From a virus, in IMG/VR virus record IMGVR_UViG_3300045988_079665: a DNA stretch of 64,000 bases; one strand, written 5' to 3'. Shown in pieces: positions 4,216 through 58,104 of this stretch (positions are counted from its first letter, which is position 1; each line of letters begins with the position of its first letter). Made by a program: the position numbers and the translations under genes. The notes under the pieces were generated by a model that did no database searches, had not been told where the DNA came from, and worked only from the letters and a program-made list of their open reading frames with translations.

Positions 4216-6528
4216 TTATTCACATTTTGTATATCCACAGGATTTACAGGTGCAGCAACCGCCTTCAAATACTAGAGGTTCGCCACATTCAGGGCAAGTC
4301 TGTCCAATATCTCTAAGTGCACTGGCTATTTCATTCATTGATTTAGTTGTCTTTGCTGATGCTTCTTCTAGTTCTTTGAACGTGGCATTAAGTTTGGATA
4401 ATAGTGTATCATCTTCTTTATCATCTAGCTCACTCTGCATCTCATTATACATCTCTACTAGAGCATTACCAATAGCCATAGGGCAACACGAGCCTTTACT
4501 TGTATCATGGTGAGTTGCCTTTCTAGTAGCATAAGATGGGCATACACCAGTTGAATCAAGCTGGTCTTTGATGGTCATAATATCCACACCAGCACGGCAT
4601 AGTAGGCTGACCATTCGGCTTAGACCTGTCATGAAATTAGCACATCCACCTGTCGAGCCTTTATTGAAATATACCTCTTGTAAATTGCCGTCAATTGGGT
4701 CAAAGAATGCTAGAACGTGAAGTGAACCGCATCCTGTCTGGATTTTACGCTTTTTGCCAATCAGGTCATTACTTGGTTCGATGATTGAGCCACGAGGAAG
4801 GATAGTAGATGTATTTTCTGGCTTAGCTTCATCATCTTTCTTTGGTTCTGCATTTAGAATACCAGCTCTTTTGCATCCAGCACGATATACTGTAATGCCC
4901 TTTAGATGTTTCTCCCAAGCATACATATATAGGTCTTTTACATCGTCTACTGTCGCTTCGTTTGGCAGATTAACAGTAGAGCTAATGCTTGCATCAATAT
5001 GTTTCTGCCATACTGACTGCATATCAATGCGCCGCTTGATAGGAATGGTAGCAGATGTAACAAAATAGGATGGTAGCCCAAGTTCGTCTTTAATACCATT
5101 ATCGTCCATATATTCCTTAACGATTGGTGTATATACCTTATACACCTCATCATGCCCATGCAGGGATTTTGTAGTGCGCTCATAGTAGTTAGCAAATATT
5201 GGTTCAATGCCACCAGATACGCCAATCATTGTGCTAATAGAGCCAGTTGGCGCGATTGTTAATAGTTGGCTATTGCGTAGTCCATTCATATGAATCAATA
5301 GCTTGGCTTCATTATCATCAGCTTTAATATGTTCAGTAAAGAATGGTGATGTGGTTACTTTATCAATGTCCCAATTATAGTAACAGCCTATATCTTTAGC
5401 TACTTTAGCACTCGCTACAATGGCATTACGAGCCATAGAATAGCCAATGGAATCACATAGAGTGATAGAATCAGGAGAGCCGTATTCAATACCTAGCTTA
5501 ATTAGCATATCGGCTAGTCCCATGATGCCAAGTCCAATCTGCCGCCAATCTCTTACTGTTTTGCGCTGTTCAGCTAGTGGATGCCGCTCAAGCCCCTCAT
5601 CAAGCACATCATTCAATGTTCTAACTGCAATATTTACAGTTCTGTTAAAATCATCCCAGTCAAACTTGCCGTTATCGGCAAATGCAGATAGGTTGATTGC
5701 ACCAAGTAGACATGAGCCTCCTGCTGGTAGTGGTTCTTCTGCGCAGGGATTTACACCAGCATATTCAAATTCCTTATCGTTACTTACCAGATTCCAGTTG
5801 GCAATTCTATCCCAATAGAGAATACCTGGCTCGGCATAATCCCAATTATTACGGCATAACAGGTCAAAAATATCTCGCGCTTTTACTGTTTTCTTGATTT
5901 CTTCGCCTGTTTCATTGCGCTTATAGTATAGTTCCCAATCTTCATCATTTTTAACTGCAACCATAAAACGGTCTGTAACGCGAACTGAGATATTAGCAGA
6001 TGTTACTTTGTTCAAGTCGGATTTGATCGTAATGAATTTTTCGAGGTCTGGATGGGTGCAATCAATGCTAATCATCAATGCACCACGTCTACCATTCTGA
6101 CCAATCTGTTCTGTGACTTGACTGAATGTGTCCATAAAGCTGACTGCACCAGATGTGGATTTGGCTTGATTATTTACCTTTGCACCACATGGAGCAAGTT
6201 TGCTGATATCAATGCCGCAGCCTCCACCATATGAGTAAGTTCTAGCCAGCTTCTTAGCAGTATCATAAATTGACTCAATGTTATCTTCAGGTGGAGTGAT
6301 AACATAACAATTACTATATGTTACCTTTTCATCATCAATGCCGCGATTGCTCAAGATGCGTCCACCGAACAAGAATTTCTTATGAACAATAAGCTCTACT
6401 ACATCTGCGTCGCCACCACTTACACGCTCAAGCCAATCTTCAAAAGATTCCCCATTACGTTGATATTTCTTTTTCCAGATGTCAATACCAAGCTGATTTT
6501 CTTTGCCTAGCCATTCTTCAACAAACAA
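4216..6528 (-). CDS. nrdJ: class II (adenosylcobalamin-dependent) ribonucleotide reductase
   Basis: 770 aa. Has NPCAEEPLPAGGSCLLGAINLS, TVNLPNEATVDDV and a C-terminal CPECG...CKSCG zinc ribbon. No beta subunit gene is nearby. Confidence 0.9.
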   Translation of the reverse strand: MFVEEWLGKENQLGIDIWKKKYQRNGESFEDWLERVSGGDADVVELIVHKKFLFGGRILSNRGIDDEKVTYSNCYVITPPEDNIESIYDTAKKLARTYSYGGGCGIDISKLAPCGAKVNNQAKSTSGAVSFMDTFSQVTEQIGQNGRRGALMISIDCTHPDLEKFITIKSDLNKVTSANISVRVTDRFMVAVKNDEDWELYYKRNETGEEIKKTVKARDIFDLLCRNNWDYAEPGILYWDRIANWNLVSNDKEFEYAGVNPCAEEPLPAGGSCLLGAINLSAFADNGKFDWDDFNRTVNIAVRTLNDVLDEGLERHPLAEQRKTVRDWRQIGLGIMGLADMLIKLGIEYGSPDSITLCDSIGYSMARNAIVASAKVAKDIGCYYNWDIDKVTTSPFFTEHIKADDNEAKLLIHMNGLRNSQLLTIAPTGSISTMIGVSGGIEPIFANYYERTTKSLHGHDEVYKVYTPIVKEYMDDNGIKDELGLPSYFVTSATIPIKRRIDMQSVWQKHIDASISSTVNLPNEATVDDVKDLYMYAWEKHLKGITVYRAGCKRAGILNAEPKKDDEAKPENTSTILPRGSIIEPSNDLIGKKRKIQTGCGSLHVLAFFDPIDGNLQEVYFNKGSTGGCANFMTGLSRMVSLLCRAGVDIMTIKDQLDSTGVCPSYATRKATHHDTSKGSCCPMAIGNALVEMYNEMQSELDDKEDDTLLSKLNATFKELEEASAKTTKSMNEIASALRDIGQTCPECGEPLVFEGGCCTCKSCGYTKCE

Positions 6529-23809: not shown

Positions 23810-26800
23810 TTACACCTCCAATTTCTTCCAACATTTCATTTCCACAATTTTTTCACTTAGCGTTACCCATTCGCCGTTCTCGTCCTTCTTCATTTTATTC
23901 TTCTCTTGCAACACCACCCTTGCTACATCACCCTTTGATAATTGATGATTCGTCCAGAATTTCTTATTGGCTCGATATGTGCGTTCTGCGCCATAGCATA
24001 GATTGTATAAGGTACAATAAATCTTACCATATCCTGTTGTCTTGACATCTAACACGAGCCAATCATTTGGGTCTGAATTTGGGTCATTTACTGTGCAATA
24101 TCCTAGATACTCAAGTTGCCATTTAATGCGATCAACAATAGTAGCTGGCTTGATGTTAGCTTGCTTAATTAAAGCCGTTATCAATGCTTTATTATTAATC
24201 TCTCTAAATTGCTTCTCAGTTTCTTTGTCACAACACGGTCTAATTACATCTATCATTATATCATCAAATGATGATTTTGTCAATACCTTTGCTGAAATAT
24301 ATTTTTGATAAATCTCATATTCAGCAATGAGCCGGTTCGGTTGGGCAAATTTATCAAAATATCCAAGATGGAATAGAATTTCAATGGCTTTTTTATTAAT
24401 TCTAGGGTCATCCATAAGAGCTTGATATAGAGCGGCGCGATTCTTTATATCTGTTTTACCAAGCTCATATAGAGCCTCTGGTGCGCTCTTAGGCATATCC
24501 TTAATAGATGCCATAGTCTGTACAATACAGTTATTAGCACGATCTATATTGAACGCTCTATTATCGTCACCAAATTGAATATCTTTTAACTTATAGCCGC
24601 GCTTTAACATCTCCTGCTTAATAAGCGCAACCTTATCTTTCTCACCCTTATCGGTAAATCGCTGAAGAACACACTTATAAAATTCAAGTGGATAATGCGC
24701 TTTGAGATAAGCAATCGTTACGCTATCAATAGCCATACAATAAGCATGGGCACTATTGAAGCCATAGGCGGCGCTATTCTCAATAATCGTCCATACCTTA
24801 TCGGCAAGCTCATGTGCCTTGTTATCATCATTTGTTTCGCCAGTATCAAGAATAGCTTGGGCAAAATTCTTGATAAATTTAGGCTTTGCGTCCTTGATGA
24901 TATAATCCTTTTTCTTACTAATTGCCTTGATAATAGTATATGTCTCAGACATAGGGAAGCCAGCAAATCCAAGGACTTTCATTAGAGATTCTTGATATAG
25001 AATGAACGATGATGAACAGTATTCATCTTGAAGCAAATCATCAAGTGCCTTAATACCATAATCAAAGTGTTGCCGTTGCTCAAACGTCTGATACATAGAT
25101 TGGAAAGAAGGTCTGATTGCAGCTATAAATTGCGTTAGCTCAGCAATATTCTTTGGCTTATATCGCATTACCTTTTGAGTCGACCTTGGTTGTTCACACT
25201 GATTGACGCATTGTGTATAGCCATCTGCATAAATCTGCCACGTTGCATCATCATGTGCAATTTTTTCAAGAAGCTGGTTGACAGTGAATGGCTCGATACC
25301 AGCCTCTTTATAAATATCATATGTCAAGCCGATTGAATCAACAATAAGATAATCCTGTTTGAGATACCCAAAAGCATCAATCGTGCCTGATTCAATATTG
25401 GCTACAAGCACCTCTTTACCTGTTGCTTCAGATTTACACAAGCTGATACCAATATCAGATTCAATGTCGCCCTCATAGCACAAGCAACCGCAATTATGAA
25501 CAAGAAGATTATTAACTGTATAAGTATGTGTATCCTCCACTTCAAAGTTATAAACGGTCTGAATTTCTTCAAGTTTTGTTTTGTTTCTATATGGAACCCA
25601 AATCATGCCATCTTCATATAAAGCTTTATCTTGTTTTCGAGCTTCATAATGAAATTCACCACGATATTGTGTATGAGAATTTACAATTCTACCCTGAATT
25701 TTCTCAATTCTATCTTGTCTTGATTTAATTAAAGAACATGGGCGATTATATGCTTTATTTATGCAAGCAACAATTCCCAGCGCTAATTCTTTATTGATGG
25801 TAGAAAATATCTGACATTTTGTTACTTTATCAAAATGCCCATCTGCACTAAAGTAACCTTGTAAGAATGATTTAAGCTGTTCAACTGGTAGATTAAGAAT
25901 TGTTCCTGTCAAGCGTTTCCCAATCGCATAATCTCCAAATTCACCAAGCCAATCATATAATTCTTTACTTTTGAAATATATCTTATTGGTAGTCACTTCT
26001 TTTGCTATTCTAGTCTTACACCAGCTTGCATGAGATAAGATTTTATTTGTTTCATCATTATTTTTATTACAACAAATAATGACATTTTTTATTTTTTGCC
26101 CAACTTTCTCACCAGACTTACGAACTGTATGACTTCTCCATCCATCTCCAAAATATCGTCCAATACACCACCAAAAGTCAAGATTTGTTGAATCTACAAA
26201 ATTAAGAATTGGTAATCTGCTTAATTGATTGATTGGAACTCCAATTAAATCGCCTTGCTCAAGTTGCTCAACTGTTTTCCATGTAGGATTTTTATTTCTT
26301 TTTTTTGTGTAAAATGGATGGTTGCTTGTAACTTGAATTGCCGGAGAGCCATATGCTACAACGTTATAAATGTCATCAACATTGGATGTTATAAATAATT
26401 GTTTTACTTTATGATATTGTCCATCACTAGATAAAACATTATCTCCAATGGTAATATCCTTAATTTTTTTGTAACCATTGCTCGTCATAACAAGTTCATC
26501 CGCAGTAAAGCATGGATGACCCTTTGCAGTATCATAAATGCCTAGATATTTTTTACATCCATCTACAAGCTCTTGATATTTTGGCTCGATATATTTATGA
26601 ATATCAACCGTTTCACCATCTTCAGCGTGTTTCTTAGCTGTTTCATATTGGTCAATCTGCTTACTTACTTCATTAGCTGTATCAGGCTCGACATTATGTG
26701 CTCTTGCATACATTTTCCATGCGGCCTTGAATTTAAGCGTACCAAGAGCCAATAGGTCATATGTGCCAAGTTCACCTACTAGGTCGCGCTGTGCTTGAAT

Positions 26801-28072
26801 GAATGGTTGACGGTCACTAACATTGTTATCAATATCGGGCGGCGTATGGCTATCCAAGACGCGCTCTTTAGTCAAGAATCGCTCTGAATACATAAGGACT
26901 GGACTATTAACCTTATCAACCTTAGTAAGCCGCAAGAGCTTATTGAGATACATAGAGACAGCAGAACCACGCCCTGATGGGGTCAAAATACCGCCATATT
27001 TCTCTTGCCCGCGCTTCATTACCATATATGACAAGATGAAATAATCCGCCATATTACAAGCCTCTATTTCACCTATATCATGCTTAATCTCTTGATAATA
27101 CTGTTGCAGTTTATCCTTGTTAATATCGGCTTTTTGCAAGAACCATTCATCTTTAAGAATCTGCTCAAAGATATGATTGCGTTCCTCTTGAGTTTTATTG
27201 CGCAGCTCTTTTATAACAGGCACTTTCAATGAGCGGTCGAGCTTGATGTCCTCAAATTCAAACAACACATTGGTATTATTAATAGCGGCTTTAATCTGTC
27301 CATCTGTCAATACGCCCTGTTGCTTAAATCGCTCAAATAGAACATCATATGTTGGATAATCCATATACCATCCATCTTCATCCTCATAATGGATGTTGCC
27401 AGATTTAAGCAATTCATCTCTATCGAGCATTTGCGATTCAGTGATAACATGACTATCACACCCAGCAATAAGTGGAATTCCATAAAATTTTGGCAATAGC
27501 AAATGCTCATTTAATTGCTTCTGCGCTAATGTATCATGGGCTTGCACTTCAAGATAGAAATGCGGAAACTTATGTGCCAGTTTAATAACAATATCGTCTA
27601 TATTGTTATATTTATTCCAGAAAGCAATGCAAGCCGTTGTAATCATCACATCATCGTATGGCAACTGGTCAATCAATTCAAGATCAATGCGAGGACGTGC
27701 ATAATATCCATCCTTATTGGCAATAGATAAAATTTTATTGATTGCTTTACGCCCTTTATCGGTTCGAGCTAATAGCACAATATGGCAGTTGCTTCTATCT
27801 GACTCATGCCTGTTTTTTACCCAATATGCTTCAGCGCCATATATCCATCTGATATTCGTGCCATTCTTCTTATTAAATTTTTCTAAGTCATCATATTGAT
27901 TGAAATAATTACCAGCCCATCCATGCTCTACTGTGGTATAGATGCACGGTTTATCTCCATATCGCGCTTTTAGCTCATTCCAATAATCAACAGGCAAGAG
28001 CGGGCTATCTTTCATATAGCGATTACTTAATGATGTATGTTTATGGTAATTTACCCAAATTGGTTCATTCAT
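23810..28072 (-). CDS. dnaE: DnaE-type DNA polymerase III alpha subunit (PHP + polymerase core), interrupted by an intein
   Basis: N-terminal PHP NYHKHTSLSN, plus GRGSAVSMYLN and GFNSAHAYCMA motifs. 1420 aa including a 340-aa in-frame insertion. Confidence 0.9.
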   Translation of the reverse strand: MNEPIWVNYHKHTSLSNRYMKDSPLLPVDYWNELKARYGDKPCIYTTVEHGWAGNYFNQYDDLEKFNKKNGTNIRWIYGAEAYWVKNRHESDRSNCHIVLLARTDKGRKAINKILSIANKDGYYARPRIDLELIDQLPYDDVMITTACIAFWNKYNNIDDIVIKLAHKFPHFYLEVQAHDTLAQKQLNEHLLLPKFYGIPLIAGCDSHVITESQMLDRDELLKSGNIHYEDEDGWYMDYPTYDVLFERFKQQGVLTDGQIKAAINNTNVLFEFEDIKLDRSLKVPVIKELRNKTQEERNHIFEQILKDEWFLQKADINKDKLQQYYQEIKHDIGEIEACNMADYFILSYMVMKRGQEKYGGILTPSGRGSAVSMYLNKLLRLTKVDKVNSPVLMYSERFLTKERVLDSHTPPDIDNNVSDRQPFIQAQRDLVGELGTYDLLALGTLKFKAAWKMYARAHNVEPDTANEVSKQIDQYETAKKHAEDGETVDIHKYIEPKYQELVDGCKKYLGIYDTAKGHPCFTADELVMTSNGYKKIKDITIGDNVLSSDGQYHKVKQLFITSNVDDIYNVVAYGSPAIQVTSNHPFYTKKRNKNPTWKTVEQLEQGDLIGVPINQLSRLPILNFVDSTNLDFWWCIGRYFGDGWRSHTVRKSGEKVGQKIKNVIICCNKNNDETNKILSHASWCKTRIAKEVTTNKIYFKSKELYDWLGEFGDYAIGKRLTGTILNLPVEQLKSFLQGYFSADGHFDKVTKCQIFSTINKELALGIVACINKAYNRPCSLIKSRQDRIEKIQGRIVNSHTQYRGEFHYEARKQDKALYEDGMIWVPYRNKTKLEEIQTVYNFEVEDTHTYTVNNLLVHNCGCLCYEGDIESDIGISLCKSEATGKEVLVANIESGTIDAFGYLKQDYLIVDSIGLTYDIYKEAGIEPFTVNQLLEKIAHDDATWQIYADGYTQCVNQCEQPRSTQKVMRYKPKNIAELTQFIAAIRPSFQSMYQTFEQRQHFDYGIKALDDLLQDEYCSSSFILYQESLMKVLGFAGFPMSETYTIIKAISKKKDYIIKDAKPKFIKNFAQAILDTGETNDDNKAHELADKVWTIIENSAAYGFNSAHAYCMAIDSVTIAYLKAHYPLEFYKCVLQRFTDKGEKDKVALIKQEMLKRGYKLKDIQFGDDNRAFNIDRANNCIVQTMASIKDMPKSAPEALYELGKTDIKNRAALYQALMDDPRINKKAIEILFHLGYFDKFAQPNRLIAEYEIYQKYISAKVLTKSSFDDIMIDVIRPCCDKETEKQFREINNKALITALIKQANIKPATIVDRIKWQLEYLGYCTVNDPNSDPNDWLVLDVKTTGYGKIYCTLYNLCYGAERTYRANKKFWTNHQLSKGDVARVVLQEKNKMKKDENGEWVTLSEKIVEMKCWKKLEV
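25493..26512 (-). mobile_element. intein with double-motif LAGLIDADG homing endonuclease (aa 521-860 of DnaE)
   Basis: Starts CFTADELVMT and has block B TSNHPF. LAGLIDADG-like motifs are IGRYFGDGW and LQGYFSADGHF. Ends VYNFEVEDTHTYTVNNLLVHN followed by Cys+1. Exteins join as GHP|CGCLCYEG. Confidence 0.85.
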
Positions 28073-29856: not shown

Positions 29857-31257
29857 TCACAACCACACCTTTTGATCCTGTTGAGTACATACAACCCTAC
29901 TTGATTTACCTTGTTTAATTAGCTCATCTTGTAGGGTATGAGTAAATTCTACCTTGCTTGAAAATTCACTATGTACTAAGCATAATTTGTCATAATCTAT
30001 ATTCTGATAATATTGCATTAGCTGATTATAATTGGCATGAGATGAAAATGTATTTAAGCAATATATCTGAGCATTGTTCTGAATCAGCTCACCATCAAGC
30101 ATGATTTCTTTTGCGCCATGCTTAATTTCATATGCAAGCGTATTAGGACTAGCATAACCAGAGAATAGCACGGTATTGCGGTTATTGGGAAGAATGTATT
30201 TGAGATGAGCCAAAGCCCGTCCAGCATTGAGCATACCGCTACTAGCCACTATAATGGCTCGTTCATTTGATTGCTGAATAGATTGACTTTCTTCCCATGA
30301 CTCAATTAGTCGCAAATTGAGCTTATCTTCATAATCTAGTTGCTCTGACCATGCTCTATAGATACGACAGGCAAGCGGCGAATCAAGATAAATAGGAATC
30401 ATCTGCCCATCAATCTTGCGCTCCATGGCTCGTGTATGCCATAGGACATCAAGAATATCCTCTACGCGCTGTAGACTAAAAGCTGGCATCAAGATACGGT
30501 TATATTGGTATATAGCCGCATTAATAATTTGCTCATCATACCAGCGGTCTTTCTTCATGCTATAGCATCTAGTCGAATCACTATAAGTACATTCACCAAC
30601 TACTACATTACATCTTGGCAATGGCTCGATTGGCGGTACAGATACGCTCTTAGCCTCTGTATTAAAATCGCCCGTAAAGCCAATTCGCTTGATACTATAA
30701 CCTTGTTTGATTTCCAACACAACTTGAGCCGAATGAATTATATGACCAGCATGATAATATGTCAGCTTTGCACCGCCTACAATGGTCGTAGGAACGTTAA
30801 ACGGCACTTCGACAAGCCATTGTATTACTTTATCAATATCAGCCTCAGTAGCCAATGGTGGTGCTTTGATACCATGCTTATTCTGCATCTTTAGGCTATC
30901 CTGTGCCATGATTTTAATGCAATCATCCATCATTATCTTGAGGATAGGAATTGAGCCTTGAGGGATATAGATATATGCTTGCATACCCATAGCAACAGCG
31001 GCAAGCACCCCAAGACAATGATCAGCATGTAGATGAGTAATGACAACACCATGCACCGTCTTTGGTTTGATTTTCTTCATCTGGTCACGATTAGCGCGAT
31101 AATCAGCTACTAGATTATTGGTCTGAATTAGACCCATATCAACAGCTAATTTGATATTGTCGAATCTAACAATCGTGCATGAACCAGTTACAGATGCGGA
31201 ATTGCCACCAATGAAATGTAGATAGGGCTTGGATGTTCCAGATGATTTAGCTGGCAT
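29857..31257 (-). CDS. MBL-fold beta-CASP-type nuclease
   Basis: HLHADHC (HxHxDH) motif and a C-terminal SSHA-type motif; 466 aa. Confidence 0.7.
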   Translation of the reverse strand: MPAKSSGTSKPYLHFIGGNSASVTGSCTIVRFDNIKLAVDMGLIQTNNLVADYRANRDQMKKIKPKTVHGVVITHLHADHCLGVLAAVAMGMQAYIYIPQGSIPILKIMMDDCIKIMAQDSLKMQNKHGIKAPPLATEADIDKVIQWLVEVPFNVPTTIVGGAKLTYYHAGHIIHSAQVVLEIKQGYSIKRIGFTGDFNTEAKSVSVPPIEPLPRCNVVVGECTYSDSTRCYSMKKDRWYDEQIINAAIYQYNRILMPAFSLQRVEDILDVLWHTRAMERKIDGQMIPIYLDSPLACRIYRAWSEQLDYEDKLNLRLIESWEESQSIQQSNERAIIVASSGMLNAGRALAHLKYILPNNRNTVLFSGYASPNTLAYEIKHGAKEIMLDGELIQNNAQIYCLNTFSSHANYNQLMQYYQNIDYDKLCLVHSEFSSKVEFTHTLQDELIKQGKSSRVVCTQQDQKVWL

Positions 31258-34477: not shown

Positions 34478-34553
34478 ATATTCACCACCATTCTTTTCCT
34501 TTAGAAAAATCCCTATAATCTTTCGACCATAGGGATTTTAACAGGCGGATTAT

Positions 34554-34829
34554 TTACTCATTGATTTCCGCCTTCAATGTACTTGTTGGCTTAAATGCCA
34601 AAGCATACTTGGCAGGAACTTCAATGGTTTCACCAGTCTGTGGATTACGAGCCGTTCTTGCATCTCTCAGCTTAGTTGTGAACTTGCCAAAGCCATGAAT
34701 CACAACGTCCTCATGCTGGACTAGACTGCGCTTTACATAATCAATGAACGTGTCTACGATTTCAGTTGTGTCCTTGACAGTATTTTCTGTGCTATCTGCT
34801 ACGAACTTAATTAGTTCCTTCTTTGTCAT
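34554..34829 (-). CDS. hup: HU/IHF-family DNA-binding protein
   Basis: MTKKELI..., GFGKFTT, RNPQTGETIEVPA, FKP; 91 aa. Confidence 0.85.
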   Translation of the reverse strand: MTKKELIKFVADSTENTVKDTTEIVDTFIDYVKRSLVQHEDVVIHGFGKFTTKLRDARTARNPQTGETIEVPAKYALAFKPTSTLKAEINE

Positions 34830-35368
34830 AATTTCCTTTTAATTTCCTTTCGATTTCTAATAAAATTTTATTAAAACAAGTCGCAATGTTCATGCGCATA
34901 TTGACTTGATATATAGGGTTATTTTGTCGCACTATTAACTACTTACAGGTACTCACTTCACCAAGCCCTATACTATTTGCGCGGAATAGGATTATCACCA
35001 CACTATAAGCACATTTTCCAGTTTTGCTCTTCGGATGGTACTAGATGAGATTCGACCAACAGCCAACCTTAGCAGTGACGCGCGTTATTTACTAAGGATT
35101 TTTAGAATTGCCACACTCTCTACAAATTCATGTTAAATTGAATTTACAGTTGCGCAACCATCTTAAAATCAAGAGTGTGGCGACGTTGCCTCATAGCATC
35201 AAGTGGTCAGCTATCAACTATTCAGCAACTAGCATTATAACCTATAAACTAGACTATCCGCAGTGACCAAATCTTGAGGACTGTCTTACAAAGCTAGGAT
35301 TTTCGGCTTTTCCACCAGACGGCTATCAAGTGTGCTTACAATGCTAGTAGAGGCATGATAGACGTTTT

Positions 35369-35441
35369 TGACCGTGGTAGGATTCGAACCTACATCTCAT
35401 CCGCTATGAACGGAGAGTATTACCAATTAGGAGACGCGGTC
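35369..35441 (-). tRNA. tRNA-shaped element with Met-type CAU anticodon loop but no pairing D-stem
   Basis: GACCGCG/CACGGUC acceptor (one C-A mismatch). A14/G18G19/A21 are in place. Anticodon arm CUCCG-UUCAUAG-CGGAU, T arm GUAGG-UUCGAAU-CCUAC, A73. D-stem UCCU vs AUAC pairs at only 1 of 4 positions. Confidence 0.4.
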
Positions 35442-35448
35442 ATATGGA

Positions 35449-35562
35449 AATGGGCTTTAAGCGTCAACCCATTAGAAGCATTGGATTCCTATTCAGTTTA
35501 TTAAGTCGTATGTATCCAACAACCAGTGGACTTTGGTAATGGGCTTTAAAGATAAACCCATT
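35449..35562 (-). repeat. twin hairpin modules (AATGGG...CCCATT-AGAA) 89 nt apart
   Basis: Copies at 35449-35473 and 35538-35562 share aatgggctttaa...acccattagaa. Confidence 0.6.
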
Positions 35563-35880
35563 AGAACTAATCAGCAAGTCTACACTCTAACCTAGTCCTA
35601 AGACTGCTAGAACCTCTCCACATTTTTGTATGCCTCGCCTCGACTTACTGATTGCAACTATAATTAGTATCCCTTAGTTGCCTAGGGGCCAATCCCTGCT
35701 TAATCCGTCTGGTTCTCGTTATCGACATGATTGACTGCATATGCCTTTATGCTGTTAAGCAATTTAATTTCCTCTCACCAGCTCGATTTGCATTTGATAA
35801 CGAAGTGCTTATGACCAATTCTCTTCTCCGTATTAGTAGTCTATAAACCAGCCACTATATATCGTTTCAAGTGGACTTAA

Positions 35881-35959
35881 TGGTGCGGGATAGGAAAGTC
35901 AAATCCCTACGCCTTACGGATTTTGAATCCGCTCCCTCTGCCGATTGGGGTACCGAGCC
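35881..35959 (-). ncRNA. tRNA-shaped chimera: Leu(CAA)-like 5' half joined to a T-arm/acceptor/CCA 3' part that does not pair with it
   Basis: 5' half is GGCUCGG-UA-CCC(C)-AAUCGGCAGA-GGG-A-GCGGA-UUCAAAA-UCCGU. 3' part is AGGGA-UUUGACU-UUCCU-AUCCCGC-A-CCA. The acceptor strands are not complementary. Confidence 0.3.
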
Positions 35960-36637
35960 ATATTTATCTTAAGCCGACTTTCTACCTCATAGCTATTTCT
36001 AGCATCGGCTCGTGAATGATGTTTACATATGATGTGCTATCACGCCAAAAAATCCATGTTGCTAAGGCATATCCCAACACACAACATAATGCTTAGCAAG
36101 ACAAATTTGTGTGCCAGTAGTCGCTAACTACTCTTGGGAACAAGTGAATATCGAACTACCATTTCTGGACGGTGCGACCGATTTATTCTTGTGCAAAGCA
36201 CTATGTTCATTCACTGTTAGTGACTCGCGATCAGGCTTCCTCTGATTTAACTGTCACCATTGCCACGATTTACTCCTTAGACGATGGCTGCCTCTAAGCC
36301 AACATTTCATATGTATGTAATATCCTTATATCACCTTTGCCGTTATGTTTTTGCCCTCATGCTAACGGAACACGCTCAGGCGCGACCCCAATTCTCTATA
36401 AGCTATCTGCCGCTTCTCAAACTCTGCACAGACCTGCTTCACAGGCGTGATATAGATTTGACGGTTATCTTCAAATCCGGTCGGATATTATAAACGATGG
36501 CTGTTCATCTCACTCCATTTACTACTGCTCCTGTGTTCCAAAGATTCTATATTGCTATTCATTATCGGCTTTGCCGTCCTGTCTTACCGGGCGCTCATAA
36601 TCTTTAGCTTCGTAGCACCATCATCTTTACATTCTCA

Positions 36638-36666
36638 ATTATAGCATACTTGATTTCATTTGTCAA
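36638..36666 (-). promoter_or_regulatory. sigma-A type promoter TTGACA-17-TATAAT driving the ORF-free RNA locus
   Basis: attata at 36638-36643 and tgtcaa at 36661-36666. The upstream TGA stop lies inside the -35. Confidence 0.75.
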
Positions 36667-36809
36667 GTATTATTTTTGAAATTATTATTTATTTTTTCTA
36701 AGATTTCTTCCATTTGCACATTGGCTTTAGTCCAATGATATACGACTATCAGCATCCCAACTGCAACACCAACCGCAAATGAACCTAAACAAGCTAACAG
36801 AATAATCAT
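36663..36809 (-). CDS. small membrane protein (48 aa)
   Basis: Hand translation MIILLACLGSFAVGVAVGMLIVVYHWTKANVQMEEILEKINNNFKNNT. Confidence 0.4.
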   Translation of the reverse strand: MIILLACLGSFAVGVAVGMLIVVYHWTKANVQMEEILEKINNNFKNNT

Positions 36810-36871
36810 ACACTAATAATCAATAAATTTTCCCAAACTCTTTACCCTACAAACTTACCTTACCTAATTAA

Positions 36872-37111
36872 CTAATCCTGTTTTTCTTCATTATTAGTCA
36901 ATGATTTCTTTGCTAGACGAGCTGATTTGAGCCGTTCTGCCGCAGCTTGCTTCTGTTCATCGGTCATCTCTCTTTTTCTAAATGGATTGTTGCCTAGGCG
37001 AAACGGATATAAATTGCAATCGTGGATAGTACAATTCTTTACTTCATAAGCCGAGCCACAGCTACATTCTAAGCAGTGCTGACGGATGACTTTTAGTGGA
37101 GATTTTTCCAT
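36872..37111 (-). CDS. zinc-finger small protein (CLEC...C...C PF-RxG type)
   Basis: HCLECSCGSAYEVKNCTIHDCNLYPFRLG with a basic C-terminus. Confidence 0.55.
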   Translation of the reverse strand: MEKSPLKVIRQHCLECSCGSAYEVKNCTIHDCNLYPFRLGNNPFRKREMTDEQKQAAAERLKSARLAKKSLTNNEEKQD

Positions 37112-37329
37112 ATTATCACCTCATTGATAATTGGTTCCGTTTATTATTATCTAATGCCTTATAAACGGTTTCCTTAAAATTTGGCCCCTACTTTATACAC
37201 TCATAGGTGAATTGTGGTCAGTTAACGATTGATTTCTGAACGAATTGATTTTTGGCTCATACAATCATAACCCGCAATTTCAACTGTTTGTTTAAGTGTT
37301 AACTGAAATTGCTTTAACTGCGATCACTT

Positions 37330-37422
37330 TGGTACTGGCGCTCGGACTCGAACCGAGATTTTGCGGCAATCGACCGCTAAACTGTGTATAGGACAGCTGG
37401 CTTACCATTAACCGACACCAGC
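37330..37422 (-). tRNA. class II (long variable arm) tRNA with non-canonical anticodon loop CCUAUAC (nominal anticodon UAU, C33)
   Basis: Full cloverleaf: GCUGGUG/CGCCAGU acceptor (2 G-U), D arm GGUU-AAUGGUA-AGCC, anticodon arm GCUGU-CCUAUAC-ACAGU. It has a 23-nt variable arm with a GCGG/CCGC stem, T arm CUCGG-UUCGAGU-CCGAG, A73 and encoded CCA. Confidence 0.6.
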
Positions 37423-37520
37423 ATATTTGAGCCTTTTATCGTCATGCTCAGGACTATATTTTAGGAGGTTCACAATGAAGAACTGTAATTGAGATTACCC
37501 AATCTCTCAACCACATCTGT

Positions 37521-37549
37521 ATTATATCATATGAGTTGCTGTTTGTCAA
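37521..37549 (-). promoter_or_regulatory. sigma-A type promoter TTGACA-17-TATAAT upstream of the tRNA
   Basis: attata at 37521-37526 and tgtcaa at 37544-37549. Confidence 0.75.
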
Positions 37550-37559
37550 GAATTATTTT

Positions 37560-37736
37560 TTATAGTTCTTGAAACATCTTTTCCCATTTTTCCATCCACA
37601 ACATAACTGGAGTTGTATCGCCTGTTCTATAAGTTTCATATGCGATAGCACCACGCACGAATGTCATAATACTAGACTTTGTAACAAGACCGGTTGGGTC
37701 TGGCAATTCTGTTTTACCAGTTTCATATTGCTTCAT
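37560..37736 (-). CDS. hypothetical protein (start uncertain)
   Basis: ORF track 37560-37796. The first two Mets lie within or upstream of the promoter at 37762-37790, so the third Met (MKQYETGK) is used. Confidence 0.4.
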   Translation of the reverse strand: MKQYETGKTELPDPTGLVTKSSIMTFVRGAIAYETYRTGDTTPVMLWMEKWEKMFQEL

Positions 37737-37761
37737 GATAAAATCTGTAAGTTTCTCATCC

Positions 37762-37790
37762 ATTATATCACACCAACTTTCATTTGTCAA
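37762..37790 (-). promoter_or_regulatory. sigma-A type promoter TTGACA-17-TATAAT
   Basis: attata at 37762-37767 and tgtcaa at 37785-37790. Confidence 0.7.
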
Positions 37791-37942
37791 GAACAAATTT
37801 TATTCATTTCAATAAATTTTTCACAAGCCCATCCATTTAGAACTGGTACTTCATCACAGTTGTAACCCCACAATCCAGTTTCACGGTCATAGCAATCTAC
37901 ATGACAAAGATAATCACCGATTTTGAAATAGGTATTAAGCAT
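37787..37942 (-). CDS. small Cys-containing protein (51 aa)
   Basis: Hand translation MLNTYFKIGDYLCHVDCYDRETGLWGYNCDEVPVLNGWACEKFIEMNKICS. GAGGA RBS; the TGA stop lies inside the next -35. Confidence 0.4.
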   Translation of the reverse strand: MLNTYFKIGDYLCHVDCYDRETGLWGYNCDEVPVLNGWACEKFIEMNKICS

Positions 37943-37945
37943 ACG

Positions 37946-38158
37946 TTAATCCTCTACATAATATGTTTCACATACATCTTGTACATCATCTCTGTTCGAT
38001 TTAATATCTAATGTTGCATATGTTGGATTTGCGCCTTCATATACAATTTTTAGTTTGCAGTCAATCCCAAGATTTTTCATCACAGACTGAATCTTCTGAA
38101 ATGCCTTACCAAGCAATTCTTCCCTGAGCTGATATTCTTCCAATGTTTTCGCTACCAT
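37946..38158 (-). CDS. hypothetical protein
   Basis: ORF track. Confidence 0.5.
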   Translation of the reverse strand: MVAKTLEEYQLREELLGKAFQKIQSVMKNLGIDCKLKIVYEGANPTYATLDIKSNRDDVQDVCETYYVED

Positions 38159-38168
38159 AATTTACTCC

Positions 38169-38510
38169 TTACCAATCAGCATTGATTATAATTTTATTGC
38201 CATCAATACGAGCTGATTCTATCAGCCGATAGACGCAATCCATATGCCACAAACCTTCAAAATCAGGTCGATTGACAAATTTGCTAAGCTCATCAACTTG
38301 TTTGTCGTTAAGTGACATATCTTTACCGTACATAGGTTGTGAATACGGTTGTCCTTTTACATATGGCTTATAATAACCAATAGATTCGAGAAATTCATAC
38401 CACCAACTACCGCCACCATCAACTGTATCAACGGCTCGATATGTAACCAATTCACCGCAATGTGGACAATAAATTGGCTCTGCACGACTGATTCTAATGT
38501 CTAGCCCCAT
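38169..38510 (-). CDS. hypothetical protein with N-terminal zinc ribbon
   Basis: CPHCG; first gene behind the promoter at 38542-38570. Confidence 0.5.
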   Translation of the reverse strand: MGLDIRISRAEPIYCPHCGELVTYRAVDTVDGGGSWWYEFLESIGYYKPYVKGQPYSQPMYGKDMSLNDKQVDELSKFVNRPDFEGLWHMDCVYRLIESARIDGNKIIINADW

Positions 38511-38541
38511 ATATTATCATCTCCATTCATTTGATAATTGG

Positions 38542-38570
38542 ATTATACCATATAAAATTAGATTTGTCAA
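38542..38570 (-). promoter_or_regulatory. sigma-A type promoter TTGACA-17-TATAAT
   Basis: attata at 38542-38547 and tgtcaa at 38565-38570. The upstream TGA stop lies inside the -35. Confidence 0.7.
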
Positions 38571-51874: not shown

Positions 51875-53035
51875 TTATTCATCCTCCTCATTTTCATCAC
51901 AATTTTCATCTACAAAATGGACATCTACATTGAAAATTTCTTTCAGAACATCAATAGCTTCTTTTGGCTCGATGCGGAAAAATTCTCTATCTGGGTTGAC
52001 CCGCTCTTTGTCGAAATATTTATGGATATTATTTTCCAGCTCAAAGCAATCATCACTGAATACAAAACAATGAGCATGATATGGTTCTGGCAAGCTGCTT
52101 GAGCTAAGTTCACGCACTCTTAATGCAGGATTCAATCTTCTAGTGCAACCGAGCTTTACCAATCCGGGCAAGCTTGGTGAACTAATTACATATAGCCAAC
52201 CAGCTTTGCTATGTGATTCACGATAAGCAATAGAATCGAGCCGCTTGTCAATACTAGCTAATTGAGATTTAATTCTATTACGCTCATCGTCTGTTAGCGC
52301 TTTATCAAACGCAATATTCATTGCTTTCTTTTCTTCAAGCAATTTAGCGCGTTCTCTAGCAATATCAGCAAGCAACTGTTCCTGTTCTTTTAATCTGCGC
52401 TTTTCTTCACGGATTCGCGCCTTTTCTTCTTTCTGTTTAACCTTAATTGCTAAGTTGATATATAGCATATCAAGCCGCGCCTTTACATATTCAGCATTGA
52501 GCGCCAATCCGACTTTATTTGCCTTAGACTGATAAGAATTAAATTTATTCTTAATCAATTCTTTGCTCTTAGCAATATTGCTTGTTGTTATGGATTTTTC
52601 TTTGTTGTCAATATATTCTGACATAGCATAGCACAATCCGCGCCCATATACATCCTGCATTTCTTTACCGCGCCTAGCAGAATCATTGAGGGTATATCCT
52701 TGCTCAATGCGATATAGACCAGTATTTACGGCAGATTCAATTTTGCTTTGTAGCTCATAGCGTTTATGCTCAAGTTCATCTAGTGAATCTTGATAATATG
52801 GGATATTATAATCCTGCATTTCTTCAATGGTATGGATTTTGCCATTTAGAGCATTAAGGACGGATTGAGCTTCTTTTGCGGCGATTTCGGCACTTTCTGC
52901 TGATTTACGGCTTTTTTCTTCTTTTGTTTCAAGAGAATCAATTTCCTTATACAACTCTTGAATCTTAAAGTCTAGTAAATCGATATAATGCTCAAGTTCT
53001 TTCTTCTTCTTGTTCATCTTGAAAATCTCGAACAC
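51875..53035 (-). CDS. DUF4041-like coiled-coil + T5orf172/MUG113 (GIY-YIG-related) domain protein
   Basis: Long Glu/Lys coiled-coil N-terminal region. C-terminal GWLYVISSPSLPGLVKLGCTRRLNPALRVRELSSSSLPEPY...EFF. Confidence 0.6.
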   Translation of the reverse strand: MFEIFKMNKKKKELEHYIDLLDFKIQELYKEIDSLETKEEKSRKSAESAEIAAKEAQSVLNALNGKIHTIEEMQDYNIPYYQDSLDELEHKRYELQSKIESAVNTGLYRIEQGYTLNDSARRGKEMQDVYGRGLCYAMSEYIDNKEKSITTSNIAKSKELIKNKFNSYQSKANKVGLALNAEYVKARLDMLYINLAIKVKQKEEKARIREEKRRLKEQEQLLADIARERAKLLEEKKAMNIAFDKALTDDERNRIKSQLASIDKRLDSIAYRESHSKAGWLYVISSPSLPGLVKLGCTRRLNPALRVRELSSSSLPEPYHAHCFVFSDDCFELENNIHKYFDKERVNPDREFFRIEPKEAIDVLKEIFNVDVHFVDENCDENEEDE

Positions 53036-56924: not shown

Positions 56925-57012
56925 GAAATATATGGATAAAATTAACTCACCACAATATGTTGTGGTAGACTAATAGGGAGACATATCTTTGAAATGAAGG
57001 GTGGTGAATGTG

Positions 57013-58104
57013 ATGGCATACATGGCTTATAAATTTAGGATGTATCCCAATACTGAACAGGAAAATCTTATAATAAAGACATTTGGTTGTGTTCGGTTTA
57101 TTTATAATAAGATGCTTGAAGATAAAATAAAGTTTTATGAATGTACAAAGAAAAGATTAAATAATACTCCCGCACAATATAAAAAAGAATATCTTTGGTT
57201 AAGAGAAGTTGACGCTTTTGCTTTGTGCAACGCACAAATTCATTTGCAAGCAGCATATAATAATTTTTTTAAGAATCCAAAGAGCGGGTTTCCTAAATTT
57301 AAGAGTAAGAAAACGGGCAAGAATAGTTATACAACAAATAACCATTCGGAAAATATAAGGATTGTAGATAAAACTATTAAACTTCCGAAACTTGGAATGG
57401 TTAAAATAAAGCAACACAGAGAAATCAAGCAAAATCAAAAAATTAAGTCTGTTACCATCACAAGAAAACCATCTGGGAAATACTTTGTATCAATTTTAGT
57501 TGAATATAATATTGTTGAAAAGTCGGTAAAATTAAATAAGGAAAAATCGATTGGACTTGATTATTCAAGTCATAGCTTTTACGTCGATAGCCAATGTGTA
57601 GAAGCAGATTATCCACGATTTTATCGAGCGTCTCAAGATCATTTGTCCAAAGAGCAAAGGAAGTTGGCTACAATGAAGAAAGGTAGCAACAATTATTATA
57701 AGCAAAAAGTAAAAATTGCTACTATTCAAGAAAAAATAGCAAACCAAAGAAAAGATTGGATGCACAAATTAAGTACAGAATTATCAAATAAGTACGATTA
57801 TATTTGCGTTGAAGATATAAATTTACAACAAATGTCACAGCATTTAAATCTTGGGAAATCTACATATGACAATGGATTTGGTATGTTTAGAGATATGCTT
57901 TTTTATAAATTAAAGCAAAGAGGGAAAAAGTTCATCAAGATTGATAAATGGTATCCATCTAGTAAAATGTGTAGATATTGTGGCACGATAAATTCTAATT
58001 TAACTCTAAGCCAAAGAGTATGGACATGTGAATGTGGAAAAGTGCTTAATAGGGATGAAAATGCAGCGATTAACATATTGAACGCTGGATTAAGTATGAT
58101 ATAA
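57013..58104 (+). CDS. tnpB: TnpB RNA-guided endonuclease (OrfB_IS605 + zinc ribbon)
   Basis: MAYKFRMYPNTEQ N-terminus. RuvC triad candidates IGLDYS, ICVEDINL and NRDENAAINI. Zinc ribbon CRYCG...CECG. Confidence 0.85.
   Translation: MAYMAYKFRMYPNTEQENLIIKTFGCVRFIYNKMLEDKIKFYECTKKRLNNTPAQYKKEYLWLREVDAFALCNAQIHLQAAYNNFFKNPKSGFPKFKSKKTGKNSYTTNNHSENIRIVDKTIKLPKLGMVKIKQHREIKQNQKIKSVTITRKPSGKYFVSILVEYNIVEKSVKLNKEKSIGLDYSSHSFYVDSQCVEADYPRFYRASQDHLSKEQRKLATMKKGSNNYYKQKVKIATIQEKIANQRKDWMHKLSTELSNKYDYICVEDINLQQMSQHLNLGKSTYDNGFGMFRDMLFYKLKQRGKKFIKIDKWYPSSKMCRYCGTINSNLTLSQRVWTCECGKVLNRDENAAINILNAGLSMI

Follow-up and report, generated by a model that had tools for sequence, protein, structure and literature searches.

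The locus considered here raises the question of what a human-gut phage encodes in about 1.8 kb of DNA that lies behind a perfect promoter and holds no conserved protein-coding gene. It is found in an IMG/VR virus record (IMGVR_UViG_3300045988_079665), of which we analysed one stretch of 64,000 nucleotides (the window), and occupies positions 34860-36666 on the minus strand. An initial annotation, made from the sequence alone, had read it as a candidate giant structured phage RNA, either a member of the class of GOLLD and ROOL or an undescribed large RNA. Comparison with related phages shows that the DNA encodes an ordered chain of RNA domains, predicted to fold independently of one another, which are gained, lost and swapped as cassettes. 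Our preferred reading, to which we assign a probability of about 0.55, is that the locus is a dedicated non-coding transcription unit in a phage tRNA island, from which the chain of domains would be released by processing.

The region is preceded on the minus strand by a sigma-A/sigma-70 promoter of the extended -10 type (TTGACA-17-TGnTATAAT, 36638-36666), with 12/12 matches and the TG extension in addition to the elements that had been annotated, and it ends at an HU-family gene (34554-34829), as had also been reported. The G+C content is 0.41-0.44, compared with 0.34-0.39 in the flanks, which bears out the earlier impression by eye. The statement that the transcribed strand holds only trivial open reading frames (ORFs) of fewer than 15 codons was wrong, since minus-strand ORFs of 26-41 codons exist; from the promoter down to the HU gene there is no ORF of more than 41 codons. 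The dense pairings described in the initial annotation are not borne out by thermodynamics, and the case for structure rests on covariation instead.

Relatives were gathered with a 79-aa protein encoded just upstream, which led to 23 IMG/VR contigs of ~50-100 kb on which the HU gene is also present. Patterns taken from the DNA of the region added more contigs, viral and metagenomic, of which some carry a human-gut label and two (ENA ERZ791729 and ERZ791623) are near-identical to the window, for ~75 related contigs overall. A nucleotide search of GenBank phages returned nothing similar to the region or to the 12 kb around it. A scan of 185,579 GTDB species representatives with patterns from two of the blocks described below (D and K) gave chance-level matches only, with no prophage copy or host found.

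Among the relatives, the interval between the gene for the 79-aa protein and HU ranges from 233 to 2311 bp. By blastn it resolves into blocks with sharp junctions, each present or absent independently of the others. We named these, in order, C, D, E, F, G (a tRNA-Leu slot), H, I, J (a tRNA-Met slot), K, an inserted hairpin, N and M. The order in the lineage of the window is tRNA-Ile ... [C]-D-[E]-F-tRNA(Leu/Ile/Val/Phe)-[H/I]-tRNA(Met, Thr, Ile ...)-K-[hairpin]-N-[N]-HU. Other lineages, of higher G+C content, have tRNA(X)-K-N-(N)-tRNA-like units-tRNA-Pro-tRNA-Gln-tRNA-Met, or N alone. N is the most widespread block, followed by K-N, and D-E-F-H are limited to the lineage of the window; other phage lineages have K and N but none of D, E, F and H, and N also occurs without K. 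The whole cassette, including the promoter, is gone in three relatives (L020, L022 and L023), in which HU and its upstream segment are intact. The promoter is kept in the remaining 20 of the 23 and belongs to the RNA cassette. In relatives without block C, among them L123, domain D begins ~13 nt past the -10 box, and promoter and D therefore form a unit.

We looked for conserved coding ORFs in the homologues and saw none, the interval being nearly ORF-free in all relatives. Variable columns are spread evenly over codon positions, without 3-nt periodicity in any domain (chi-square p 0.25-0.92 for D, K, N, E and H). Because there is no codon signal, the relatives are ORF-free here, some of them lack the cassette and the blocks are sharply bounded and independent, the region is non-coding, dispensable as a whole and modular.

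Structure was assessed with covariance models built for N (R1), K (R2) and D (R3), copies being collected and re-aligned from ~1.07 Mb of fetched loci, with shuffles (500) and slid-partner pairings as controls. RNAalifold on a plain MAFFT alignment of K missed most helices because the stems were out of register, which re-alignment to the covariance model cured. Covariation of all columns against all was set aside, as it was dominated by lineage-correlated changes. For each of N, D and K the observed covariation score was reached by 0/500 shuffles. Slid-partner controls brought the paired cells down to 30-50%, and unfitted alignments inspected by eye also show many stem sequences at the same positions. 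The strong covariation in D, K and N and the compensatory changes seen in E, F and H support a structured RNA on the minus strand, and frequent G-U pairs make the predicted folds specific to that strand. With filters off, the models found one N and one D in the window and no extra divergent copies, and the other blocks are therefore not diverged copies of N or D.

Domain N (34976-35102, minus strand; about 115-125 nt) is predicted to comprise hairpins P1-P4 and a loop-loop pseudoknot between P3 and P4, with conserved junctions (ACAAAGAG, CAUAG, GGUGA and AUUCCGYGCAA). It scores 51.2 bits with R1 in the window (E 1e-10), and 100 matches (70 distinct) were found on many contigs, up to three of them in tandem. 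The alignment has 94.9% of cells paired and compensatory changes in 19/22 pairs; the covariation score is 0.457, with 0.167 for the shuffles and no more than 0.069 for the slid pairings. The partners in the P3 and P4 loops vary (GGC/GCC, GGCGU/ACGCC, GGCAA/UUGCC, UUGGUU/AACCAA, AGGUU/AACCU) and fit their own partner better than the loops of other copies (permutation 20/2000, on a crude measure).

The P1 loop of N carries a central perfect 6-nt palindrome in 21/32 distinct loops, compared with 4.6 expected from shuffles. Seven palindromes are found (ACUAGU, UCCGGA, CCCGGG, UGCGCA, ACCGGU, CGCGCG and UGUACA), CGCGCG being that of the window (35079-35084, minus strand). A hexamer palindrome cannot self-pair inside one loop. 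We read in this loop the sequence signature of a symmetric kissing loop, that is, of RNA self-pairing. A loop that changes yet stays palindromic is what Kretsch et al. took as evidence that OLE (L9.3) and GOLLD (L21a) form symmetric kissing loops between molecules (PMC12286853).

Domain K (35176-35348, minus strand; ~170 nt) comprises hairpins Ka and Kc, a conserved 3' half and a long-range helix, K0. Its model (R2) scores 195 bits in the window, and the 50 copies (41 distinct), one of them a 32-nt fragment, come from at least two phage lineages. The alignment has 91% of cells paired, compared with ~40% in slid controls, and a covariation score of 0.287 (0.168 shuffled, at most 0.086 slid). 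K0 joins 35336-35348, just after the upstream tRNA, to 35228-35240 in the conserved centre, and partly covaries. A helix considered for this domain, Ke (GCUA/UAGC), was rejected: its third position varies uncompensated, and the segment pairs instead as K0. The loop sequence UUGGUCA could pair with the downstream UGACCA as a pseudoknot; both strings are conserved, so the pairing carries no covariation signal. K begins 42-51 nt past a tRNA of any identity (~24 distinct maps with a tRNA directly upstream). At the boundary with N there is an optional inserted hairpin (35095-35181, minus strand; stem GCCACACUCU / AGAGUGUGGC), with a minimum free energy (MFE) of -23.4 kcal/mol (z = -3.2). It is found in ~15 distinct variants, and elsewhere K abuts N.

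Domain D (36318-36492, minus strand; 175 nt) is predicted to form seven helices, the closing one joining the first and last 8 nt. R3 scores 199.5 bits in the window and recovers 34 copies (28 distinct), in which 96.8% of cells are paired. Compensatory changes occur in 20/47 pairs, compared with 7.5 in shuffles (0/500 reach the observed value), and the covariation score is 0.232 (0.136 shuffled, at most 0.071 slid). The P6 loop of D alternates between CGCG and AGCU, a weaker hint of a palindromic kissing loop than that in P1 of N. Upstream of D lies module C (36493-36613, minus strand), a variable 5' leader found in 4-10 relatives only, with a segment that resembles the 3' part of D. A direct repeat shared by the two (36329-36351 in D, 36563-36585 in C; 78% identical) suggests that C is probably a degenerate D-like copy. 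A shorter D paralogue (~130 nt) was also seen upstream of D in L002 (10515-10644) and L008 (10899-11028), of which C in the window (36563-36585) keeps a fragment only. The duplicated 10-mer reported earlier is present and sits in a 13-nt repeat (36278-36290 and 36491-36503); by our estimate one 10-mer repeat of this kind is expected by chance in 1.8 kb.

Domain E (36030-36317, minus strand) is a 288-nt optional insertion at the boundary of D and F, known from 8 copies that are 95-99% identical; the most divergent (L017) keeps the helices via at least five double changes. Positions 36267-36305 resemble helix 43 of 23S rRNA, with a partial Rfam match to large-subunit (LSU) rRNA (22 bits, E 5e-4), and by blastn the L017 version (~4987-5029) matches the 23S genes in every one of 5426 E. 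coli genomes, with 91% identity across 34 nt (E 1e-3). We take the 34-nt stretch to be helix 43, the uL11/thiostrepton site, by reference to the 58-nt GTPase-associated-centre RNA. Helix 44, which is needed for uL11 binding, is truncated in the E copy. Module F (35960-36029, minus strand) is a conserved hairpin with an inner GCUA-GAAA-UAGC stem-loop that ends in AUAUG. It is present in 19/23 relatives, and an alignment of 20 copies has 15 pairs, three of them with compensatory changes. In most loci F is followed within 0-7 nt by a tRNA for Leu, Ile, Val or Phe; no tRNA is found there in L009, L014 and L019.

Both of the tRNA-shaped units that the initial annotation had placed in the region were recovered. 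A tRNA-Met (CAU) with a poor D-arm (35368-35442, minus strand) was called by ARAGORN and scores 28.7 bits in Rfam (35369-35441), compared with a gathering score of 29; its slot (J) is filled in relatives by tRNAs for Met, Thr, Ile, Val, Asn, Asp or Leu. The other is a degenerate tRNA-Leu(CAA)-like unit (35884-35958, minus strand), with mismatches in the acceptor stem and an altered T-loop, which matches the Rfam tRNA model at 20.4 bits (E 0.7) and has no ARAGORN call. Relatives carry a bona fide tRNA-Leu(CAA) in this slot. The Rfam tRNA model has no other match (E <= 10) elsewhere in the region. The tRNAs hold the same two slots between domains regardless of identity, and their leaders end in AUAUG. 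Given these fixed slots, it is plausible that the embedded tRNAs serve as processing punctuation.

Between the two tRNA slots lie domain H and module I. H (35567-35880, minus strand) is an optional domain of 314 nt and contains the 12-bp helix described in the initial annotation (35569-35580 with 35642-35653, with a single G-U on the minus-strand RNA). This helix is conserved in the homologues (5/5 distinct H copies), with two compensatory pairs and one-sided changes such as G-C to G-U. Module I (35445-35566, minus strand) carries a pre-tRNA leader hairpin (AAUGGG...CCCAUU) in duplicate; UCCAUAUG comes after the second copy and is succeeded by tRNA-Met. The two copies are the hairpin modules that had been noticed 89 nt apart, and we find them as 33-nt units, 85% identical, at 35445-35477 and 35534-35566. 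Module I occurs in ~12 distinct variants, and the same hairpin followed by CCAUAUG precedes a tRNA in L123.

Unusual tRNA forms were also seen next to the array and in relatives. The tRNA-Ile(TAT) at 37330-37422 (minus strand) measures 93 nt and carries ~20 nt of inserted sequence behind its anticodon arm (Rfam 45.6 bits), and most relatives have the long form. In several higher-G+C loci (L139 at 716-906, also L144, L149, L155 and others), the element after N is an unusual tRNA-like unit that bears two T-arm-like hairpins and a 3' CCA; next come a class II tRNA-Ser(UGA)-like unit and then a tRNA-Pro, and ARAGORN calls only some of these.

The 3' end of the locus is formed by segment M (34830-34975, minus strand), a universal region 5' of HU with a stem (UAUAGGG/CCCUAUA), a weak hairpin followed by a U-run, a weak promoter-like site (34892-34865, 9/12 matches) and the HU ribosome-binding site. 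All 23 relatives, cassette-free ones included, share the ~80 nt of M closest to HU, and ~15 have its distal part. The hairpin at 34877-34908 with its U-run was considered as a terminator before HU and rejected as too weak (-7.1 kcal/mol, z = -0.6). The first strong intrinsic terminator follows HU (gene and terminator together span 34505-34829, minus strand): the hairpin at 34505-34539 (-19.3 kcal/mol, z = -5.4) has a U5 run behind it, and transcripts that read through HU probably end here. The HU protein matches phrog_379 DNA-binding protein (E 2e-27). Over its ribosome-binding site (34829-34857), an 11-nt unit, AAAGGAAATTA on the minus strand, is repeated 2-2.5 times. The motif UGUAAR occurs six times on the transcribed strand (34942, 35143, 35285, 35335, 36022 and 36626), where ~1.9 would be expected, a modest excess. 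Inspection by eye often places it immediately 3' of a helix (after D, in front of K, after Ka and in M), and it could be a signal for processing or protein binding.

We next asked whether the domains belong to a described family. Rfam 15 (4227 covariance models, gathering score and E <= 10) was run on stretches of 3.2 kb, 386 nt and 686 nt and on the relatives. It gave no match to GOLLD, ROOL, OLE, HEARO, group I/II introns, tmRNA, RNase P, ribozymes or riboswitches in either; apart from the tRNA matches and the one partial LSU rRNA match, the output was at chance level. ARAGORN found no tmRNA. Membership of the GOLLD/ROOL class, as initially suggested, is rejected, also by the scan of short sub-regions, on which the filters are least strict. 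Of the other suggestion, an undescribed large RNA, one half is upheld: covariation and the lack of an Rfam family point to undescribed structured RNA. That it is one obligatory giant RNA is not shown, since relatives hold subsets of the domains and three have no cassette. On the best reading, this phage tRNA island harbours a new and modular collection of structured RNAs, analogous to GOLLD and ROOL and belonging to neither family. Its kind is known, namely large structured phage tRNA-island RNAs of undefined role; these folds are new to Rfam. Single domains, N especially, may already be present, unnamed, in the catalogue of Fremin et al. (2023), which lists 8495 short RNA candidates.

The likeness to GOLLD (RF01998) is considerable. 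Both are phage-encoded (GOLLD also by prophages) in or beside tRNA islands, here with tRNAs within the array; both extend over several hundred nucleotides with many helices, the 3' part being the better conserved and the 5' part variable, and GOLLD sometimes has tRNAs in its linker. GOLLD has a symmetric kissing loop with a covarying palindrome (PMC12286853) and assembles into a homo-oligomeric cage via kissing loops and A-minor contacts, of which we read here the loop sequence signature only. Unlike GOLLD, the region has no match to its covariance model at E <= 10, has other helices and conserved motifs, and is built of separable cassettes. ROOL (RF03087) is likewise a phage or prophage RNA near tRNA islands, with an ornate fold containing pseudoknots, no known protein partner and quaternary kissing loops (PMC12286853). 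ROOL is a single unit of ~580 nt, in contrast to the chain of optional domains seen here, and its model has no match in the region. Among smaller systems, the stable RNAs of the T4 tRNA cluster (species 1 and 2, or RNA C and D) are small, have no defined role, are co-transcribed with tRNAs and are released by the tRNA-processing machinery. Compared with these, to which no sequence relationship is expected, the RNAs described here are larger, more numerous, supported by covariation and derived from phages of human-gut and other metagenomes.

Two further systems of gut phages invite comparison. The ncRNA arrays of UG27 reverse transcriptases are modular and template cDNA synthesis (bioRxiv 10.64898/2026.09.22.753630); like the present domains they are intergenic structured units gained and lost between close relatives. 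They differ in consisting of ~150-nt units of one fold beside a reverse transcriptase with two accessory ORFs, whereas the folds here are unlike one another. No match to a reverse-transcriptase family was found among the ORFs of 350-450 aa in the window (the UG27 size class; smaller ORFs were not all scanned), no accessory genes lie beside the array, and the UG27 motif AUCN7UANAG is absent from 34860-36666. HDV-like theta ribozymes lie directly beside tRNAs of gut Caudoviricetes, with a proposed role in tRNA maturation (PMC10879173), and are likewise small structured RNAs; here no ribozyme model matches, and the hairpins of K and N are arranged in tandem, not as a nested double pseudoknot. A type III antitoxin array (tandem near-identical repeats of 34-45 nt and an endoribonuclease toxin) was considered and rejected, as there are no tandem repeats other than the 11-nt unit at the HU ribosome-binding site.

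We predict the following course of events for the processed array. A strong early promoter would give a precursor of ~1.8 kb, or of ~2.15 kb should transcription continue past HU as far as the first strong terminator. Cuts by RNase P and RNase Z at the embedded tRNAs would release stable structured RNAs (a D-E-F leader, H/I, and K-N), in the way that the T4 tRNA cluster gives rise to its stable RNAs C and D. N, and perhaps D, would pair with a second copy of itself via its self-complementary kissing loop. The released RNAs may then act in trans in early infection, as RNA-RNA assemblies, scaffolds or decoys, and E may present its copy of the 23S helix-43 site to a ribosome-associated factor. 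At a distance of 3.6 kb downstream (29857-31257, minus strand) the phage encodes a 466-aa RNase J/CPSF-like protein that combines metallo-beta-lactamase, Beta-Casp and RMMBL (RNA-specificity) domains. This nuclease could take part in processing of the array.

A number of points weigh against this reading. Transcription, transcript ends, processing, stability, self-association and early action in trans are all deduced from sequence. Alignments fitted to covariance models lean towards the modelled structure, and MFE z-scores of 200-nt windows are ordinary (best -2.8). The compensatory changes of E and H rest on 5-8 close homologues. In K, covariation lies mostly in the 5' helices, the 3' half being conserved in sequence, and pairs with double changes (12/35) are not above shuffles (239/500). 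The LSU rRNA match was not reproduced in two later Rfam scans, and the suggested 23S likeness of E therefore rests mainly on the BLAST result. As the tRNA-Leu is degenerate and the tRNA-Met below threshold, it is not certain that RNase P and RNase Z would cut there. The P1 palindromes could in principle be protein sites at the DNA level. Finally, no strong terminator was found between N and HU, and the RNA could be merely a very long HU leader.

That last possibility, a long cis-acting 5' leader that regulates HU in the manner of a riboswitch or attenuator, would agree with the position of N, which lies 2-7 nt upstream of the universal HU segment in most loci of the window's lineage (to ~117 nt in others) with no strong terminator in between, and with its aptamer-like conserved junctions and loop-loop pseudoknot. 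It is very improbable, given that HU and its upstream segment are intact in L020, L022 and L023 without the cassette, that K and N precede tRNAs and not HU in other lineages, and that N occurs up to three times in tandem. The idea of one giant ornate RNA that works as a single molecule, with D-(E)-F as a variable 5' domain, the tRNA stretch as linker and K-N as a conserved 3' domain, and that forms a homo-oligomer like GOLLD and ROOL, is rather unlikely. Its layout agrees with that published for GOLLD (conserved 3' part, less conserved 5' part, tRNAs in the linker, tRNA-island setting): K-N is the most widely conserved part and D-F is restricted to one lineage, N and possibly D bear signatures of palindromic kissing loops, and there is a single promoter without a strong internal terminator. 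Against this stand relatives that function with K-N only, N only, F and a tRNA only, or nothing; the lack of covarying contacts between domains, for which no systematic search was made; the lack of homology to the GOLLD and ROOL models; and the fact that embedded tRNAs are normally excised. We favour the processed array over a single obligatory giant RNA because subsets of the domains stand alone in relatives. In our assessment the two readings are close to each other, GOLLD too having a variable half and a linker that holds tRNAs.

Rapid gain and loss of cassettes behind an early-looking promoter among early genes would also be expected of anti-defence decoys or mimics, each domain sequestering a host factor (tRNA-targeting nucleases, type III toxin endoribonucleases or ribosome-associated factors) and turning over in an arms race. 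The near-copy of 23S helix 43, the non-canonical or degenerate tRNAs in the array and, in one relative, a weak abiF RNA motif match (E 0.78) are in keeping with such decoys. We nevertheless regard them as improbable: the abiF match is at chance level, there are no tandem identical repeats, nothing but the 34-nt helix-43 segment bears significant likeness to antitoxin RNA, CRISPR repeats or host RNA, and the helix 44 on which uL11 binding depends is incomplete in that segment's domain. Two further accounts are scarcely credible. An ordinary tRNA island with spacers of decaying tRNA pseudogenes and neutral filler would explain the two tRNA or tRNA-like units of the window, its degenerate tRNA-Leu and the several true tRNAs of relatives, but it is contradicted by covariation: the spacers lack tRNA-model matches at E <= 10, are conserved across lineages and have compensatory changes in folds that are not those of tRNAs. 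Equally hard to accept are a cluster of genes for tiny proteins and an array that serves a UG27-type reverse transcriptase as template. ORFs of 26-41 codons exist, and a precedent for modular gut-phage arrays that template cDNA is given by the preprint cited above; yet there is no codon periodicity, the ORFs are not conserved, the window's ORFs of 350-450 aa have no reverse-transcriptase match, the region lacks the UG27 motif and its units fall into different families.

A bolder reading is also possible, which we put forward tentatively. The locus may represent a third, undescribed class of self-assembling ornate tRNA-island RNA with exchangeable domains. In such a class a tRNA-K-N core would oligomerise via the covarying palindromic kissing loop, and accessory domains, for example E with its helix-43 copy, would recruit ribosomal or translation factors in host take-over.

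Other genes in the window include those for phage replication, integrase and lysis functions. Four perfect TTGACA-17-TGnTATAAT promoters lie within 2 kb on the minus strand (36638-38570; at 38570, 37790, 37549 and 36666) before very small genes, a cluster that looks like an early-gene region. In a 1420-aa DNA polymerase (23810-28072, minus strand), the polymerase matches are split by ~370 aa (residues 515-882) that match ribonucleotide-reductase and helicase phage families, and this segment is probably an intein. We also identified a gene for TnpB/IS605 OrfB (Cas12f-like; 57001-58104, plus strand), for which an omega-RNA is expected on the 3' side, and one for a 386-aa protein with a C-terminal T5orf172/MUG113 domain (51875-53035, minus strand).

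Few classes of large structured phage RNA are known, GOLLD and ROOL among them, and their roles are undefined; recent work has shown that both assemble into cages made of RNA alone. Another set of structured RNAs in the same niche, unrelated to these, would make phage tRNA islands a recurrent home for elaborate RNAs. The domains are small and tractable for structural and biochemical work, N offering 70 distinct sequences, and the relatives provide a natural experiment on which domains can be combined. The palindrome is a concrete handle on RNA-RNA self-association. The putative helix-43 copy leads to a specific hypothesis that would tie such RNAs to the ribosome, consistent with the finding that ribosomes bind GOLLD in pull-downs (PMC12286853).

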